Positions 2,708 to 36,074 of a stretch of 36,074 nucleotides of DNA are shown here, one piece after another. The first letter of the stretch is position 1. Every line of letters begins with the position of its first letter. The notes beneath the pieces are model-generated. The model was given only the letters and a program-made list of their open reading frames with translations, was not told where the DNA came from and searched no databases. A program made the position numbers and the translations under genes. The DNA is from a virus: IMG/VR virus record IMGVR_UViG_3300045181_000026; one strand, given 5' to 3'.

Positions 2708-3535
2708 TTAGGCGGCCGTCTGGGCGACGACGCGGAGGCGTGCGCGGTCGACGTCGACGTAGCGCTGCGTGATGGTGGGGGTGGAGTGCCCGAGCAGTTG
2801 TTGCACGGCGAGGAGATCGTTGGTGGCGCGCCAGGTCTTGGTGGCGAATCGGTGACGCAGGCTGTGCATGGTCCACTCGCCCGGGAGGGCCTCCGCGACG
2901 AGCTCGCCCACCCATCTGGGGGAGAGGTGGCCGTCGATCTTACCGGGGAAGGCGTAGCCGGCCCCGTCCTGGCAGGCGGCGCGGATCCGGTCGGCGAGTC
3001 CGTTGTCGAGCGGGATGAACCGGCGCCGGCCGCCCTTGCCGTGGACGAGGAGCGTCCAGCCGTCGAGGTCTTGCACGAGGTCGCTGATGTGGACGCAGGC
3101 GACTTCGGCGCGCCGGAGGCCGCGGTGGGCGCCGAGCTCGATCATGAGCCGGACGCGGTGGTCGGCGCGCATGATCGCCTCGCGGAGTGCGGCATCCGGG
3201 GTGGGTCGCGGCCGGTGGTCGGGTTCGCGGACTTTGGGCAGCACGATGGCGGGCGAGGTGGTGCAGCGTCCGGTGCGGGTGGCCCATTCCCAGAAGCCTC
3301 GGAGCGACGCGCGGACGCTTCGGCGGGTGGCGGCCGACCACGTTTGCGCCGCGGTCCAGGCCACGAGGTCGTCGGGGGTGACGTCCCACGGTCCGACGCC
3401 GAGGGCGCGGGAGCATCGTCGGAGGTGGTCTGTGCGGGTGGTGATTGTGCCGGGGGAGCGGCTGGCAGAGCGCATCTCTGCCGACCAATCGTTGAGGGCC
3501 TTGGACCATTCCGGAGTGATCGGTTTCTCTCTCAT
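2708..3535 (-). CDS. int: Tyrosine integrase (275 aa)
   Basis: Catalytic signature visible: ..HRGLRRAE.., HSLRHRFATK, LLGHSTPTITQRYV (R..HxxR..H..Y). C-terminus is ...RVVAQTAA. Confidence 0.92.
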   Translation of the reverse strand: MREKPITPEWSKALNDWSAEMRSASRSPGTITTRTDHLRRCSRALGVGPWDVTPDDLVAWTAAQTWSAATRRSVRASLRGFWEWATRTGRCTTSPAIVLPKVREPDHRPRPTPDAALREAIMRADHRVRLMIELGAHRGLRRAEVACVHISDLVQDLDGWTLLVHGKGGRRRFIPLDNGLADRIRAACQDGAGYAFPGKIDGHLSPRWVGELVAEALPGEWTMHSLRHRFATKTWRATNDLLAVQQLLGHSTPTITQRYVDVDRARLRVVAQTAA

Positions 3536-3556
3536 GCTCGCGATTTCAACACCGGA

Positions 3557-4060
3557 TCAGCGGGCGTGAGGCAGTTCGAGATCCACGTCTGTGGACAGCG
3601 TGGTCGCAGGTGAGAGGGTGTGGACGGTCGCGAGCTCGTCGCGCTCGATAGCCGGCTCGGAGACCACCGGGAGCGGGACGATCTCGGCGAGGTGCTCGTC
3701 GCGCTGGACTCCAGACCAGAAGGTTGGGGGTTCGAGTCCCTTCGGGCGCGCAGATGCCCCGGTCGCGTATGCGACCGGGGCATTCGCCATTTCTGGGCCG
3801 CGACGGGGCGTCCTGCGCACGAGCAGTTCGGCGGGGTCCAGCCCGAACATGTCGGCAATCGCCTCGATCTCCCCGAGCGTGATCGGTCGAGCTCCGCTCA
3901 GCTTCAGCGAGAAGCCGCCGGATGAGAGACCGAGACGGCGGGCGACCTCAAGCTTCGTCAGGCCGGCTCGGCCAATCTCTGCGCGGATGTTTGCCGCCAC
4001 GACATACGCGAGCGGGGGCTCATCGGGCGATGCCTGCGGATGGATTGGCGTAGCTGTCAT
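3557..4060 (-). CDS. XRE-family HTH immunity repressor, viral form (167 aa); the ORF runs through the attP core
   Basis: ATG 4060. HTH: NIRAEIGRAGLTKLEVARRLGLSSGGFSLKLSGARPITLGEIEAIADMFG. Divergent from the cro-like gene. The listed ORF 3557..4198 has an unlikely N-extension. Confidence 0.75.
   Translation of the reverse strand: MTATPIHPQASPDEPPLAYVVAANIRAEIGRAGLTKLEVARRLGLSSGGFSLKLSGARPITLGEIEAIADMFGLDPAELLVRRTPRRGPEMANAPVAYATGASARPKGLEPPTFWSGVQRDEHLAEIVPLPVVSEPAIERDELATVHTLSPATTLSTDVDLELPHAR
3634..3705 (+). repeat. Two copies of a 12-bp direct repeat, GCTCGTCGCGCT (3634-3645 and 3694-3705), just 5' of the attP core; candidate arm-type Int sites
   Basis: Exact 12/12 match, 60 bp apart, read directly. 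Confidence 0.4.
3709..3750 (+). other. attP common core: mimic of a tRNA 3' half (anticodon loop to 3' acceptor strand)
   Basis: CTCCAGA-CCAGA-AGGTT-GGGGG-TTCGAGT-CCCTT-CGGGCGC-G fits anticodon loop, 3' anticodon stem, variable loop, T-arm and acceptor 3' strand. Upstream sequence cannot pair to form the 5' half, so this is not a gene. It lies next to int. Confidence 0.7.
3754..3783 (+). terminator. Perfect hairpin directly after the tRNA-like segment (likely replacement tRNA terminator after integration)
   Basis: 13-bp stem ATGCCCCGGTCGC / GCGACCGGGGCAT, loop GTAT. Confidence 0.6.
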
Positions 4061-4173
4061 ACGTGAGAGTCTACAACGCACCGTAAGAATGCGGAAGGGT
4101 CTGCAAGTCCAGGTTTCGCAACGCGCTGATCTTGCGGCTTGCAAGACCCTGTGACGTGGTGTAGACATGCCGC
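4061..4173. promoter_or_regulatory. Divergent rep/cro control region with nested inverted repeats and -10-like hexamers
   Basis: Outer inverted repeat GTCTACA (4069-4075) / TGTAGAC (4160-4166). Inner repeat GGGTCTGCAAG (4097-4107) / CTTGCAAGACCC (4138-4149), which includes the palindrome CTTGCAAG. TAGACT lies 7 nt before the rep ATG and TAGACA 6 nt before the cro ATG. Confidence 0.55.
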
Positions 4174-4422
4174 ATGCAGATCTTACGCGGTGCAACACTC
4201 TCTAACATTCGAGCGGAGATGGCTCGACGAGGTCTCCGTCAGGCGGATCTCGCCGAGGTGCTCCACATCAGCAGCGGAGCGATCAGCCAGAAGCTCACCG
4301 GAGCGCGGCCGATCAACCTCGCCGAGCTGGAACTGATCGCGGAACGAATCGGCGTGCCGATGAGCGTGCTGGTCGATGACGACCCGGCGCTCGCCGGCGA
4401 TCACGCGAAGGCGGGTGCGTGA
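4174..4422 (+). CDS. Cro-like XRE-family HTH protein (82 aa)
   Basis: LSNIRAEMARRGLRQADLAEVLHISSGAISQKLTGARPINLAELELIAERIG. Clearly paralogous to the repressor HTH. First gene of the rightward early operon. Confidence 0.8.
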   Translation: MQILRGATLSNIRAEMARRGLRQADLAEVLHISSGAISQKLTGARPINLAELELIAERIGVPMSVLVDDDPALAGDHAKAGA

Positions 4423-4425
4423 TGA
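4405..4425 (+). repeat. 21-bp direct repeat, copy 1 (GCGAAGGCGGGTGCGTGATGA)
   Basis: Identical 21-mer at 4887..4907. Covers ..AKAGA-stop plus an overlapping ATG. Confidence 0.9.
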
Positions 4426-4444
4426 ACTGGTGGAAGTACGACGA

Positions 4445-4476
4445 CGCCTCGGCCGCCGAGCTTGGCAGCCGAGGCG
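4445..4476. terminator. Hairpin between the cro-like gene and the convergent reverse gene
   Basis: 9-bp stem CGCCTCGGC / GCCGAGGCG with a 14-nt loop. Confidence 0.45.
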
Positions 4477-4487
4477 CGGGCCCCACG

Positions 4488-4745
4488 TCAGTTGTCGTAG
4501 AAGGTCATCTGGCCGTCGGTGATGAAGTCGGCGAACGCGGCCGCCTCGAGGTCGGAGTCGAGCTCGATGGCGAGATGCTGTCCGGGACCGGCGAGGAACG
4601 CGTGAACCGTCCCGGTCTCGATGTCCTTGACGGTGAAGACCGCAGTGCGCCCCTCGGTTGCTTGAACGCGGGCATCGCTGATCATCTCGAAGGCGTCAGT
4701 GTCGGCGACGCTGATGCGCGCGCTCGCGGTGACGAGTGTGGCCAT
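4488..4745 (-). CDS. Hypothetical acidic protein (85 aa), reverse-oriented moron
   Basis: ATG preceded by CAGGAGAG. Hand-counted GC3 is about 87% (74/85). The competing + ORF 4419..4904 is G/R-rich. Confidence 0.7.
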   Translation of the reverse strand: MATLVTASARISVADTDAFEMISDARVQATEGRTAVFTVKDIETGTVHAFLAGPGQHLAIELDSDLEAAAFADFITDGQMTFYDN

Positions 4746-4886
4746 GGGGGCTCTCCTGTGGTCCGTGGGGGCGGGGGTGCTGGCCGGCGAGGCGGATGGG
4801 CCCGCATCGCGGATGTGGCCAGCATTCCCAACTCAACCACGCGGGGGCCGCATGCGCGCTCGGTTCGCCGCGGCAACCGCGTGACT

Positions 4887-4907
4887 GCGAAGGCGGGTGC
4901 GTGATGA
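4887..4907 (+). repeat. 21-bp direct repeat, copy 2
   Basis: Identical to 4405..4425. Contains the stop of shadow ORF 4419..4904 and ATG 4904. Confidence 0.9.
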
Positions 4908-5527
4908 GCGACGACCTGCCTCGCCTCGATGTCTTCCCGCTCACCCGCACGAGGAAGGTTCTCGCGGCCGTGGACGGGCTGATCCACCAGGCCCGCGAGT
5001 TGGCGGATTTGTCGGCGCCCGAAGACGGCGATCGACAGGCCCGAGCGGTCGCGTCGATCGCCGCCGAGATCCTAGGTGACGTAGCGCCGTATCTATTGAA
5101 CGCGGTCAGCGCGGACGATGATCGGGAACGGGGCTCCGACGATCAGACGGACCTCGAGCCTGTTTCCGTCCTCCGCCTTGCGGATGCCGGCCGGGAAGAG
5201 GCCGCTTCCTTGCTGCGTGCAGTAGCTGGCCGCGACGGAGTCGAGACTCTCGCCCTCGACGGTGAAGGTCTCGGTGCCGTAGGTGACGCTGAATCGCATG
5301 GGAACTCCCTTTCGGTCGAGCGGGACGAGCTGGTAACTCGTGCCGCTGGTAGGTCGTCGGACGCGGGCGCGTCTGGCGATATTCCGACCGTAGGGGTAGG
5401 CGCCGACAGTCGAGCGGGTGCTCCCTTCCCCGCTCCTGACGGTGCCGCGGCGTCGGCCGGGTCCACCGGGGCGGTGGGCCTGGCCGAGGCTGAACTCGAC
5501 CGCGCTGGATCGGCGGACGAGCGATGA
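4904..5527 (+). CDS. Questionable ORF: the first ~60 codons look coding; the rest reads antisense through gene 5093..5299 and through apparently non-coding DNA
   Basis: GC3 is about 80% for 4904-5100, but about 63% over 5093-5299 and about 68% over 5300-5523 (hand counts). Ends in ATGA overlapping the 5524 start. Confidence 0.3.
   Translation: MSDDLPRLDVFPLTRTRKVLAAVDGLIHQARELADLSAPEDGDRQARAVASIAAEILGDVAPYLLNAVSADDDRERGSDDQTDLEPVSVLRLADAGREEAASLLRAVAGRDGVETLALDGEGLGAVGDAESHGNSLSVERDELVTRAAGRSSDAGASGDIPTVGVGADSRAGAPFPAPDGAAASAGSTGAVGLAEAELDRAGSADER
5093..5299 (-). CDS. Hypothetical protein (68 aa), second reverse-oriented moron
   Basis: AAAGGGAG RBS upstream of ATG 5299. GC3 is about 85% (58/68), against about 63% for the overlapping + frame. 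The sequence looks globular. Confidence 0.65.
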   Translation of the reverse strand: MRFSVTYGTETFTVEGESLDSVAASYCTQQGSGLFPAGIRKAEDGNRLEVRLIVGAPFPIIVRADRVQ

Positions 5528-5973
5528 CCGGCAACCTCGCGGGTTCCAGCGTGCCGGGCAACTTCCCCACGCCGCAGCCGCCTCTCATCCCGGTCGCCGG
5601 CGGAGAGCCGGAGATCCCTCCGGGCGCGATCGCGGCCCGTCACCCGCGCGCTGATGTCATCGCCGCGGTCAACGTCCCGCTGGCCTCGATGGCGGCCGCC
5701 CGGACGGTACCCAAGCCCGGCCCGCCTGCGCAGCCTGCGCCGGAGTGGGCACCGGCGGACCGTGACCGGCAGTCGGTGGACCGCTCGAAGAAGCTGACGC
5801 AGATCCGAACGCGCCTCGAGTCCGTCGTGCACCTGCTGCGCTCCGCGGACTACCTCGGCTTCCACCGGCTCGACGCGGACGCGCTCGACGTCGCGGCGGT
5901 CGCGGCCGACGTGGCCGGCAAGTCGATCGCCGATCTGCTCCGCCTCATCCCGGAAGACGACTCCGACGACTGA
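5524..5973 (+). CDS. Hypothetical early protein (149 aa)
   Basis: Listed ORF. P-rich N-terminus, helical acidic C-terminus. Followed by hairpin 6012..6049. Confidence 0.55.
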   Translation: MTGNLAGSSVPGNFPTPQPPLIPVAGGEPEIPPGAIAARHPRADVIAAVNVPLASMAAARTVPKPGPPAQPAPEWAPADRDRQSVDRSKKLTQIRTRLESVVHLLRSADYLGFHRLDADALDVAAVAADVAGKSIADLLRLIPEDDSDD

Positions 5974-6011
5974 TCACCGCTGATCAGCGTCGCCCCCACC
6001 CGCAGACAAGA

Positions 6012-6049
6012 CGACGCCCCGGCTATCGACCAAGAAGACCGGGGCGTCG
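6012..6049 (+). terminator. Hairpin (possible attenuator or terminator, no U-tract)
   Basis: 11-bp stem CGACGCCCCGG / CCGGGGCGTCG with a 16-nt loop. Confidence 0.4.
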
Positions 6050-6077
6050 CATCGAACGAACGAATCGAGGCTACGAC

Positions 6078-6467
6078 ATGTGCTACCTGAACGCAGTCGA
6101 CTCGCCACCCGACACCCGCCCGTCGCTGTCGGCCCGCGAGTGCGCGGCATCGCTCGCGCTCACGGATGACGAGCCGCCCGCCGGTGTCGAGCTCGCGGCG
6201 ATCGATGGTGGTGACTCCCGCCCGATCGCGGAGATCCCCTCGATCACCGCGGGGATGATCACCGCGACTCGCTCCCGCATCGACGCCCTCCACGCCCGCT
6301 CGACCCTCGTCCGCGAGACCACGCTCATGGAGGCGCTCGCCGAGCTGCTGGACCTTCTCGAGGGGACGGCGCGCCGGACGGGCGTGATCCGGATCGACGC
6401 GCTCCTCGGGGTGATGGTCGCCCCGCTGCGCCGCGGCGTGGACCCACACGCGGAGATCCGGTCATGA
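6078..6467 (+). CDS. Hypothetical early protein (129 aa)
   Basis: Listed ORF. Its stop overlaps the next start (ATGA). Confidence 0.55.
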   Translation: MCYLNAVDSPPDTRPSLSARECAASLALTDDEPPAGVELAAIDGGDSRPIAEIPSITAGMITATRSRIDALHARSTLVRETTLMEALAELLDLLEGTARRTGVIRIDALLGVMVAPLRRGVDPHAEIRS

Positions 6468-10596: not shown

Positions 10597-10773
10597 ATGC
10601 TGAACGAATCCCCCCGCCGCCCAGGCCGCCGCCCCGGCCACCGACCCGGTGTCGTTGGCCGCGTCATCGGCGCAACGATCTTGTGCCTGATCGGCGTCGC
10701 CATCATGATCGGCCTACTCACCCTCGTCGGCTACGCCGTGAAGGCGCTCGCCACCGCGTGGGGGTGGATGTGA
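10597..10773 (+). CDS. Small membrane protein (58 aa)
   Basis: My own translation: MLNESPRRPGRRPGHRPGVVGRVIGATILCLIGVAIMIGLLTLVGYAVKALATAWGWM. Confidence 0.5.
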   Translation: MLNESPRRPGRRPGHRPGVVGRVIGATILCLIGVAIMIGLLTLVGYAVKALATAWGWM

Positions 10774-11345
10774 TGGCCTCCTGGCCGACGGCGTACCTGA
10801 TCGAGGCCACCCCGTCCGGTGGCCGGCCGGACTACTTCGTGCGTGACCTGGCAGGGCACTACCAGGCGATCGGTGGGGGGCAGCGGCTCTACCGGGACGG
10901 CACCGACCGCCTCGACAACGTGGTGCCGGTGACGATCGTCCGGTCCGGCGAGCTGCGGCACCTGCGGGACATCGTCCTGACGGGGTCGGATCGTGAGGTC
11001 GCGGACGCATGCCGCGCACTGTGTGCCGGCGCGATGGATGAGACGGCAGCGGCACGACCGCGCAGTCAGGAACGTCGGCACGCAGAAACGGCCGCCGTCT
11101 CGCGCTCAGGGAGCGGGAGGCGAGTCCCGACGGTGAGCCTTGCGGCGAATCACGGCGATCACGGCGGTGCCGACGAACAGCACAACACCGATAAGACCCA
11201 GCCAGAGCAGTCCCTTAAGCATGAATCCGACGATCGACAGGATCAACCAGGCGACGAGCAGCACCACTATCAGAGTTCCCATGTCGCGACGGTACGCCCT
11301 AACCGCTGTGTCCACACTCCGCAGGAAGTCGCGGGCGAGCGATGA
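10773..11345 (+). CDS. Hypothetical early protein; the 3' third runs antisense to 11106..11282
   Basis: ATG overlaps the upstream TGA. The first ~100 codons look coding. There is no in-frame stop until 11345. Confidence 0.45.
   Translation: MASWPTAYLIEATPSGGRPDYFVRDLAGHYQAIGGGQRLYRDGTDRLDNVVPVTIVRSGELRHLRDIVLTGSDREVADACRALCAGAMDETAAARPRSQERRHAETAAVSRSGSGRRVPTVSLAANHGDHGGADEQHNTDKTQPEQSLKHESDDRQDQPGDEQHHYQSSHVATVRPNRCVHTPQEVAGER
11106..11282 (-). CDS. Small 2-TM membrane protein (58 aa), reverse-oriented and lower in GC
   Basis: MGTLIVVLLVAWLILSIVGFMLKGLLWLGLIGVVLFVGTAVIAVIRRKAHRRDSPPAP. Hand-counted blocks give 55-60% G+C. GC3 is about 74%, against about 67% for the overlapping + frame. Confidence 0.6.
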   Translation of the reverse strand: MGTLIVVLLVAWLILSIVGFMLKGLLWLGLIGVVLFVGTAVIAVIRRKAHRRDSPPAP

Positions 11346-35460: not shown

Positions 35461-36074
35461 ATGGCCCAATTCCCCGGCGCCATCCAGAAGCCCATCAGCA
35501 CGAACTTCGGCCTCGTCCGCAGCGGCGGCAAGATCGACCGGACCGCGGCCCGCCCTGGCGGAACGACGGCCGTGATCTATCACGTCGCAGCATCCAAGGC
35601 CGCGAGCCTGCGCGACTACTTCAACCTGCCCGCCGTCCGCGCGTCCTCTCACCTGTTCGTCCTCTACAGCGGGTTGGTCGAGCAGTACGTCGACACCGAC
35701 CACGTCTCCTGGGCGTGCGGGGACGGCGACCTGCGCGCCATCACCGTCGAGACCCAGGGCGTGGACGGCGAGCCGTGGACGGACGCCCAGGTCGAGACCC
35801 TCGCCCAGATCGCCGCGTGGGCGCACCGCACCTACGACGTCCCCCTCCGCCTCATGACCTCCTCCGCGACGAGTCAGCACGGGCTGGGCTGGCACCGCCT
35901 CGGCGTGCAGGGCAACTTCTCCGGCCGGCCCGGCCTCCTTGGCCTGCACCGCTCCAACCTCAAGACCGAGCGGTGGTCATCGGCCTTCGGCAAGACCTGC
36001 CCGGGTGACGACCGGATCTTGCAGATGCCGACCATCCTCGCCCGCGCCAAGCAGATCACCGGCAGCTCGGATCC
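35461..36074 (+). CDS. Endolysin, 5' part: N-acetylmuramoyl-L-alanine amidase (Amidase_2/PGRP-like); the ORF runs off the window end and continues at 1..578
   Basis: GGAGG RBS. My own translation: MAQFPGAIQKPISTNFG...AVIYHVAAS...SSHLFV...VDTDHVSWACGDG...ITVETQG...HGLGWHRLG...FGKTCPGDDRI. No stop before the window end. Confidence 0.85.
   Translation, partial: MAQFPGAIQKPISTNFGLVRSGGKIDRTAARPGGTTAVIYHVAASKAASLRDYFNLPAVRASSHLFVLYSGLVEQYVDTDHVSWACGDGDLRAITVETQGVDGEPWTDAQVETLAQIAAWAHRTYDVPLRLMTSSATSQHGLGWHRLGVQGNFSGRPGLLGLHRSNLKTERWSSAFGKTCPGDDRILQMPTILARAKQITGSSD
35948..36074. repeat. Terminal overlap copy 2 (identical to 1..127)
   Basis: See feature 1..127. Confidence 0.95.

Follow-up and report, generated by a model that had tools for sequence, protein, structure and literature searches.

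Which event leaves the same translational junction on both sides of a gene that runs against its neighbors? The question is raised by the IMG/VR virus record IMGVR_UViG_3300045181_000026, a stretch of 36,074 nucleotides (nt; called the window in the following) which carries the genome of a temperate phage. The 21-mer GCGAAGGCGGGTGCGTGATGA, here designated J, lies at the end of a cro-like gene (copy 1, J1) and a second time 482 nt further on (copy 2, J2), and between the copies a small gene, orf85, is encoded on the minus strand. An earlier note on this locus had proposed that an accessory cassette was inserted or exchanged at a gene boundary and duplicated the junction. Following our analysis this reading is broadly right and incomplete. 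We lean towards an event in which recombination at the cro junction placed a unit of a hairpin and orf85 behind cro and duplicated J, with J2 serving later as a crossover point. The locus is an orderly case of accessory gene gain and exchange at gene borders and not a new system.

The Repeated Junction and Its Common Origin

J was found exactly twice in the window, on the plus strand at 4405-4425 (J1) and 4887-4907 (J2), the positions given in the earlier note, and no further match appeared with up to three mismatches. None of 100 dinucleotide shuffles yielded two matches. No internal exact direct repeat of the genome is longer than the 21-mer; the runners-up measure 17 nt, and the longest repeats in 60 first-order Markov simulations reached 15-20 nt. 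In the frame of cro, J reads A-K-A-G-A-TGA-TGA, and an ATG overlaps its first TGA; the Shine-Dalgarno (SD) sequence AAGGCGG, likewise part of J, lies 7 nt ahead of this ATG. J1 provides the C-terminal codons A-K-A-G-A of cro together with the in-frame SD, two in-frame TGA and the overlapping ATG; J2 holds the stop codon of a long open reading frame (ORF) that starts in J1, here called ORF-A, and the SD and ATG of ORF4904. Both roles, the end of cro in copy 1 and the identical stop/ATG overlap that opens ORF4904 in copy 2, had been recognized before and are borne out by the sequence. The 482 bp that had been stated as the size of the insert are indeed the spacing from copy to copy; the unique DNA between the copies comprises only 461 bp (4426-4886). 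Its ends, ACTGGTGGAAG on the left and CAACCGCGTGACT on the right, form no terminal inverted repeats. G+C contents are 69.0% for the insert, 64.7% for orf85, 67.2% for cro and 70.0% for the genome. Both copies of J were present in all five near-identical contigs that were read, and the same arrangement occurs on several independent contigs of the Joint Genome Institute (JGI), free as well as integrated (L011, L013-L015, L098), so that the pair of repeats is not an assembly artifact. A function of J as operator of cI or Cro was discarded, as J has no similarity to the repeats between cI and cro.

The age of the two copies can be read from L012, a 2.7-kb Logan contig (ERR13725786) and the sole diverged relative. 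Among 5.8 billion proteins only two close homologs of orf85 were found, one from the same phage (L011) and one from L012. This contig is 84-89% identical to the window (84% across int-cI-cro-orf85) and has both J copies at the same spacing of 482 nt, and J2 is conserved at 21/21 positions within surroundings that have diverged by 11-13%. In J1 of L012 a single T>C change removes the first TGA, so that cro ends there at the second TGA, in the ATGA overlap. The repeat of L012 measures 26 nt with one mismatch between the copies (aCTGCGAAGGCGGGTGCGyGATGAAC), and no additional copy is present in this contig even at up to six mismatches. Due to this extended identity the two J copies descend from one sequence, and the duplication is older than the split of the two phages.

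The homology to L012 stops exactly at 4907, the last base of J2, and returns at 5297 with the CAT of a backward gene's start codon, where 26/30 positions are identical over the last 30 nt of L012. Since the homology ends at its 3' edge, J2 is a mosaic or recombination breakpoint. Between the two breakpoints the window has the 5' part of ORF4904 and a second small backward gene, orf68, and L012 has two backward genes, orf82 and orf81, which are paralogs of orf85 (z = 5-12 versus shuffles). Judged from these two phages, the region from cro to the early operon is a variable slot filled with small backward genes. The proposal of an insertion or exchange at a gene border is supported in so far as the copies have a common origin and J2 is a breakpoint; the idea of a lone insert was not sustained, since orf68 and the L012 paralogs form an array.

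The gene between the copies, orf85 (4488..4745, minus strand), is a real gene under purifying selection and encodes an 85-aa orphan protein. In the comparison with L012 its ratio of nonsynonymous to synonymous substitution rates (dN/dS) is 0.14, and 20/30 differences fall on third positions. Its codon score of +0.70 bits/codon is the best of the region, the G+C contents of the three codon positions (GC1/2/3) are 0.63/0.45/0.86, and the ribosome binding site (RBS) CAGGAGAG lies at 4751-4758, 5 nt before the ATG. The well-formed minus-strand gene that the first reading had pointed out is confirmed by these values. ORF-A (4422..4904, plus strand), an open frame of about 160 codons that starts with the J1 ATG and stops with the J2 TGA, runs antisense to orf85. 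Its dN/dS of 0.86 for the whole frame and 0.96 across the orf85 span shows neutral evolution without selection on a protein, and in view of this and of its codon score of -0.10 bits/codon it was discarded as a real gene.

Between the convergent cro and orf85 lies a G+C-rich hairpin with a 14-bp stem and no U-tail at 4444..4477 (minus strand), one nucleotide wider on each side than the hairpin noted before (4445-4476). The predicted energy is -34.1 kcal/mol on minus-strand RNA vs. -28.8 on plus-strand RNA, the corresponding values for L012 are -31.4 and -26.0 kcal/mol, and the 101-nt stretch around the hairpin has a fold z of -3.9. A G>A change of L012 at 4455 retains a G.U pair on the minus strand only. 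The surplus of about 5 kcal/mol as minus-strand RNA and the compensated change at 4455 are an indirect sign that the hairpin serves the orf85 transcript, of which it is probably the 3' end or terminator. A consensus terminator scan did not call it because a T-run is missing. The region upstream of orf85 (4746..4886, minus strand) comprises 141 nt and holds the RBS CAGGAGAG. It is noncoding, as all six frames score negative, and is 86.5% identical to L012; an RNA structure was discarded here, the fold being insignificant (z = -0.4).

A Proposed Recombination at the End of cro

In the explanation that we favor, J would be the translational junction that ends cro, with the RBS in the last codons, the double TGA and the overlapping ATG. 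Before the split from L012, recombination at J would have set the 461-bp unit of hairpin, orf85 and upstream region behind cro, either as an insertion with staggered crossovers or through a single unequal crossover of two related genomes. Either flank would have kept a copy of the junction, the duplicated stretch having originally measured at least 26 nt, and J2 would afterwards have been used as the crossover point for swapping the adjoining segment. In the resulting arrangement J1 would still terminate the translation of cro, orf85 would be translated from its own RBS, the hairpin would end the orf85 transcript and probably also hinder read-through from cro, and J2 would give an RBS and a start codon to whatever lies rightward. 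We infer the insertion event and the direction of change. In this view orf85 would be an accessory gene of the moron type that is expressed in the direction of the repressor gene, most plausibly in lysogens. A deletion between J1 and J2 is predicted to create the junction cro end + J + GCGACGAC, and the reciprocal circle would carry ...GCGTGACT + J + ACTGGTGG...

Several observations weigh against recombination at J. A genome with an uninterrupted order cro-J-ORF4904 was found neither among the relatives nor with a 38-mer of the empty site (cro end + J + ORF4904 start), which had no exact match in the metagenome and genome contig collections; single-copy relatives lacking the insert, as they had been expected, did not appear. 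Relatives were sought in viral contigs via orf85, the cI alignment, the 149-aa early protein, the N-terminus of ORF4904 and the protein P0018, in genome contigs via cI and in metagenome contigs via P0018, and none was found. A search of viral contigs with Cro gave only helix-turn-helix (HTH) matches at 37-42%, and exact look-ups of the L012 cI and Cro returned L012 itself only. The cassette has no known donor, and its G+C content (69%) is the same as that of the genome (70%). No promoter was found for orf85 in a search for sigma-70-type sites from 3900 to 5700, a scan which covers actinobacterial promoters poorly. Moreover, L012 retains J2 without a single change despite the lack of a real plus-strand gene behind it, which a passive scar fails to explain. 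Finally, the 17-nt core of J is common in GC-rich phages, and the identity of the core alone is weaker evidence of a scar.

Alternative Explanations

The perfect conservation of J2 would be accounted for if J1 and J2 were to pass ribosomes from cro over the backward genes, via open noncoding plus-strand frames, to the early operon. This explanation concerns the function of the J copies, is compatible with their origin by insertion, and seems rather unlikely to us. In this phage lineage the cro/early operon would then accept backward accessory genes solely on condition that the sense strand opposite to them stays an open frame. The lytic transcript, being translated, would be spared polarity and Rho, and ribosomes would melt the hairpin on the plus-strand RNA only; the hairpin would terminate only the untranslated minus-strand RNA and would be strand-specific through translation. 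In agreement with this, an unbroken chain of stops and starts leads from cro over ATG 4422..TGA 4904 and ATG 4904..TGA 5527 to ATG 5524, and a corresponding chain in L012 continues across the non-homologous genes orf82 and orf81 as far as the contig reaches. The frame of the chain has 0 stops in each segment; the other plus-strand frames have stops in the genes and in the long spacers, up to seven (across orf85, 0 in the ORF-A frame and 3 and 7 in the other two). What is unexpected is that the frames match in phase about six times (1/3 each) and that the spacers are open (0.35, 0.27, 0.22), with a rough post-hoc joint P of ~3e-5; the open antisense shadow frame itself is expected from codon usage (P ~0.9). 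The 21/21 positions of J2 in L012 without a real gene behind it, the weaker hairpin on plus-strand RNA and a backward mini-gene at 11106-11282, which likewise lies inside an open plus-strand frame, point in the same direction. However, the pattern was spotted post hoc, and its left half is common to both phages and hence not independent there. The same operon also tolerates an untranslated gap of 104 nt (5974-6077), and long open frames are common in DNA of 70% G+C.

A tandem duplication of J together with a backward gene, with copies that diverged and a second unit that was later replaced in this phage, is slightly less probable again. The units of L012 are built alike, J1 + 62 nt + orf85 + 141 nt adding up to 482 and J2 + 26 nt + orf82 + 204 nt to 500, and orf82 and orf81 are paralogous to orf85. 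The genes have, however, only 26-34% protein identity and their DNA is unalignable, yet the J copies differ at 1/26 nt. This mismatch in divergence would require gene conversion or strong selection confined to J2. Besides, no J-like sequence precedes the third unit, orf81, at up to six mismatches, and in the window orf85 stands between two J copies without an adjoining paralog.

That two independent junctions converged on the same optimal arrangement of SD, stop and start, without any duplication, is improbable, even though J proved to be less peculiar than it appeared. A 17-nt core, AAGGCGGGTGCGTGATG, which includes the RBS, the TGA and the overlapping ATG, was detected in 85 IMG/VR contigs, where it marks gene borders whose flanks are unrelated; each inspected copy has the reading ..K-A-G-A-stop, and its ATG is the start of the following gene. 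At 20/85 of these loci extra copies with 1-3 mismatches are found at neighboring junctions on the same strand, compared to one on the opposite strand. The exact 21-mer is present in three IMG/VR contigs, which represent two unrelated phages. As a sign of transfer this occurrence was rejected, since about three contigs are expected from the 17-mer frequency, the GCG upstream and the A downstream, and three were observed. From its distribution the 21-mer is a generic, well-performing SD/stop/start junction of GC-rich phages, and the conclusion from a perfect repeat to a scar is weakened by the commonness of the core. The scar had been called unusually clean; the exact repeat is real, and its cleanness is in part functional constraint, as the core in 85 unrelated contigs indicates. 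The other junctions of this phage, by contrast, agree with J at only 8-13/21 positions. At none of the other 85 loci is even the 17-mer present twice in exact form, and the identity of 21 nt in the window and of 25/26 in L012 includes bases outside the functional core. It also counts against convergence that the other junctions of the phage are unlike J and that J2 of L012 serves no real gene.

Direct repeats that bracket a discrete 461-bp segment could suggest a target-site duplication by a small non-autonomous element, such as a miniature inverted-repeat transposable element (MITE), an insertion sequence (IS) or an element of the mycobacteriophage MPME type, which is very improbable, for the segment has neither terminal inverted repeats nor a transposase, no second copy of it exists in the genome or in any collection, and 21-26 bp are far above the usual target duplications of 2-14 bp.

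Two further observations were made on the junctions of unrelated phages. In the GC-rich loci L001, L023, L053, L057, L058, L059 and L070, small genes that follow one another in sets of two to five share the ending ..K(A/V)GA-stop; their junctions, AAGGYRGGTGCGTGATG, are near-identical and all on the coding strand, a recurrent "junction dialect" of such small-gene arrays. Within one unrelated lineage (L033/L086, L047/L075, L052/L084) the identity amounts to 96-98% upstream of the 17-nt junction and to about 50% downstream. The junction is therefore a sharp mosaic breakpoint there as well, in line with the explanation that we favor. Three different cassettes follow directly after the junction ATG (L033 6077-6306, L075 6751-8046, L052 587-827); their first genes are unrelated and encode 73, 106 and 78 aa, respectively, and the homology resumes at the next start codon. 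The possibility that J flanks these cassettes on both sides was rejected, since they end on the far side in an ordinary start codon, whose SD is a different one.

The orf85 Protein Family

Beyond the two orf85 copies the family of orf85 comprises orf82 and orf81 of L012 and the proteins P0018 and P0019, the last two being all that a profile search of 1.84 billion representatives added. No match to Pfam, PHROGs, NCBIfam or PADLOC was obtained for orf85, orf68, ORF4904 or the paralogs. The three paralogs of L012, of 85, 82 and 81 aa, are arranged in tandem on the reverse strand (1519-1776, 1965-2213 and 2418-2663 in the reverse-complement sequence). Each of them has its own RBS and no hairpin lies between the first two, an arrangement resembling a small backward operon.

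The AlphaFold2 (AF2) model of orf85 has the element order beta-beta-alpha-beta-beta-beta over residues 1-62, with a predicted local distance difference test score (pLDDT) of about 90, followed by a disordered tail. The structure prediction that had been proposed as a check gave a confident fold for residues 1-62, from which no function can be read. A fold search of the PDB with this model returned no match below E = 0.8. The best viral structural match, and the only confident one, is gp28 of Arthrobacter phage Galaxy, with template modeling (TM) scores of 0.60/0.74 and a root mean square deviation (rmsd) of 2.3 A. Galaxy gp28 is an uncharacterized protein of 67 aa, encoded at 2936-3139 of L099 (KU160644), and ends in ILVGPGIPIAFLD. 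The two proteins share a C-terminal motif of the ILVGPGIPIAF type and no significant overall sequence similarity. The gp28 gene belongs to a temperate actinophage, in which it occupies an accessory region flanked by the lysis genes and the integrase; its genomic position and orientation differ from those of orf85. With gp28, orf85 may be part of a superfamily that extends over further small accessory proteins of temperate actinophages. For orf68 the best AF2 model has a pLDDT of 81 and the same element order as orf85; no significant sequence similarity exists between the two, and the orf68 model matches only uncharacterized small phage proteins. In all, orf85 and its few homologs make up a tiny set of orphan proteins, and none of these comparisons points to a function.

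Comparison With Known Systems

By definition a moron is an added piece of DNA that brings along a promoter and a terminator of its own ('The moron comes of age', PMC3594210). As in the concept derived from HK97 and HK022, the unit described here is an extra small gene within an operon that reads in the same direction as the lysogeny genes and has an RBS and a terminator-like hairpin of its own, and the site varies between related phages. Of the four features by which we compared it with morons, a predicted terminator of its own was found, namely the 14-bp hairpin after the orf85 stop, which is predicted, without a U-tail, to be stronger on the orf85 strand in both phages; a distinct base composition was not. 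Unlike typical morons, no relative without the unit was found and no promoter was identified. The duplicated translational junction at the flanks and the array of backward genes lie outside the definition of a moron.

The promoter-early stem-loop (PeSL) cassettes of T4-type phages (Arbiol et al. 2010, PMC2839356) resemble the locus in that short repeated control sequences at gene borders are the crossover points for small orphan genes in a hyperplastic region. The PeSL repeat consists of a promoter and a stem-loop and is present in many copies. Here such a multi-copy unit does not exist; the repeat is an SD/stop/start sequence of 21-26 nt in two copies, and the hairpin lies outside of it. Differences between the phages begin at a repeat in the case of J2, but on its far side the exchanged segment is bounded by a start codon and not by J. 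Mini-circles, as they are known for PeSL, and deletion products did not appear here; the search for the empty site was negative.

Lambdoid phages gave rise to the idea of boundary sequences between exchangeable genes. Recombination between stretches of short or partial homology has been put forward as the source of the mosaicism of phage genomes at gene boundaries (De Paepe et al. 2014, PMC3945230). The breakpoint at J2 fits this picture as it lies exactly at a start codon and junction, and a junction common to unrelated phages could give microhomology. A mediating role of the homology between J copies is a possibility for this locus, in whose early genes no recombinase was recognized.

Actinobacteriophages with integration-dependent immunity (BPs type) and those with the prophage-mediated defense of cluster N have variable, lysogenically expressed regions beside the immunity cassette. 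The window shares the order of int, a repressor gene with attP inside and cro, followed by variable small orphan genes, and differs in that its small proteins match no known defense family in PADLOC. Located beside a switch of this kind, orf85, orf82, orf81, P0018 and P0019 are reasonable candidates for exclusion or defense proteins expressed by the prophage.

The locus offers a dated, sequence-level snapshot of a temperate phage which adds and swaps small accessory genes within an operon, with crossover points that coincide with a translational junction of 21-26 nt; many unrelated GC-rich phages possess the core of this junction. Microhomology provided by such junctions, if it really is used for cassette exchange, would support the old "linker sequence" view of mosaicism for some gene borders. 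If they are ribosome relays, they would represent a new design rule for placing morons inside essential operons without polar effects.

The Phage and Its Setting

The window has a G+C content of 70% and carries an exact direct repeat of 127 bp at both ends (1-127 and 35948-36074); from this terminal overlap it follows that the contig is circular and complete, with a genome length of 35,947 bp. The host is a high-GC bacterium. The window represents the attP, i.e., non-integrated, form, as does L014. The integrase gene (2708-3535, minus strand) is followed by the repressor gene and the cro-like HTH gene. The repressor ORF encodes 167 aa at 3557-4060 and contains the attP core at about 3707-3752. 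This core is the 3' end of a tRNA-Arg(ACG), with a counterpart at 5460-5533 of L013. The integrated copies L013, L015 and L098 begin at position 3707, within the tRNA-Arg and the repressor ORF, which results in a truncated repressor. With the attP core inside the repressor gene this is the layout of integration-dependent immunity of the BPs type.

The phage is abundant in one JGI metagenome series; the 67-aa Cro was detected on 252 contigs and orf85 on 257. P0009 derives from the same phage, and P0016 and P0017, members of the cI cluster, are fragments from the attR side of the same prophage. Comparisons with cultured phages by blastn and tblastn gave only the tRNA-like att core and otherwise chance matches (E > 0.01). 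Ten early proteins had no match in Pfam, and an Rfam scan of 3500-6100 gave nothing credible.

Genes and Elements Between cro and the Early Operon

The cro-like HTH gene (4219..4422, plus strand) encodes 67 aa from the ATG at 4219, matches HTH_3/HTH_31 of Pfam and a transcriptional repressor of PHROGs, and ends with ..AKAGA-TGA inside J1; an alternative form of 82 aa is open from the ATG at 4174. Behind J2 follows ORF4904 (also ORF-B; 4904..5527, plus strand), whose TGA overlaps the ATG of the gene at 5524. Its first 63 codons or so are weakly coding-like, and the remainder is antisense to orf68 and the adjoining spacer: GC1/2/3 is 0.76/0.46/0.81 for 4904-5092 vs. 0.81/0.59/0.66 for the remainder, and the codon scores are +0.19 for the first 63 codons vs. 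-0.18 and -0.15 for the remainder. The 207-aa product was not called as a protein in any source, and no homologs were found.

The second small backward gene, orf68 (5093..5299, minus strand), has a GC3 of 0.86 and a codon score of +0.45 and was found on 254 contigs. Between its start and the first early gene extends a spacer of 224 nt (5300..5523) without a coding-like frame, which is presumed to be the site of divergent promoters. The first clearly coding gene of the early operon (5524..5973, plus strand) encodes 149 aa with a GC3 of 0.89 and a codon score of +0.46 and was called on 210 contigs.

Within the spacer ahead of the early operon, GTCGAGCGGG occurs at 5315-5324 and at 5408-5417, 93 nt apart, and a near copy, TTCGAGCGGA, is located at 4208-4217 directly before the ATG of cro. 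These copies may be a leader or regulatory motif shared by the two rightward transcription units. Outside this region the candidate backward mini-gene at 11106-11282 (minus strand) lies wholly within the open plus-strand ORF 10773-11345, the same embedded antisense layout as seen for orf85 and orf68, with 0 stops in the chain frame and 1 and 3 in the other plus-strand frames.

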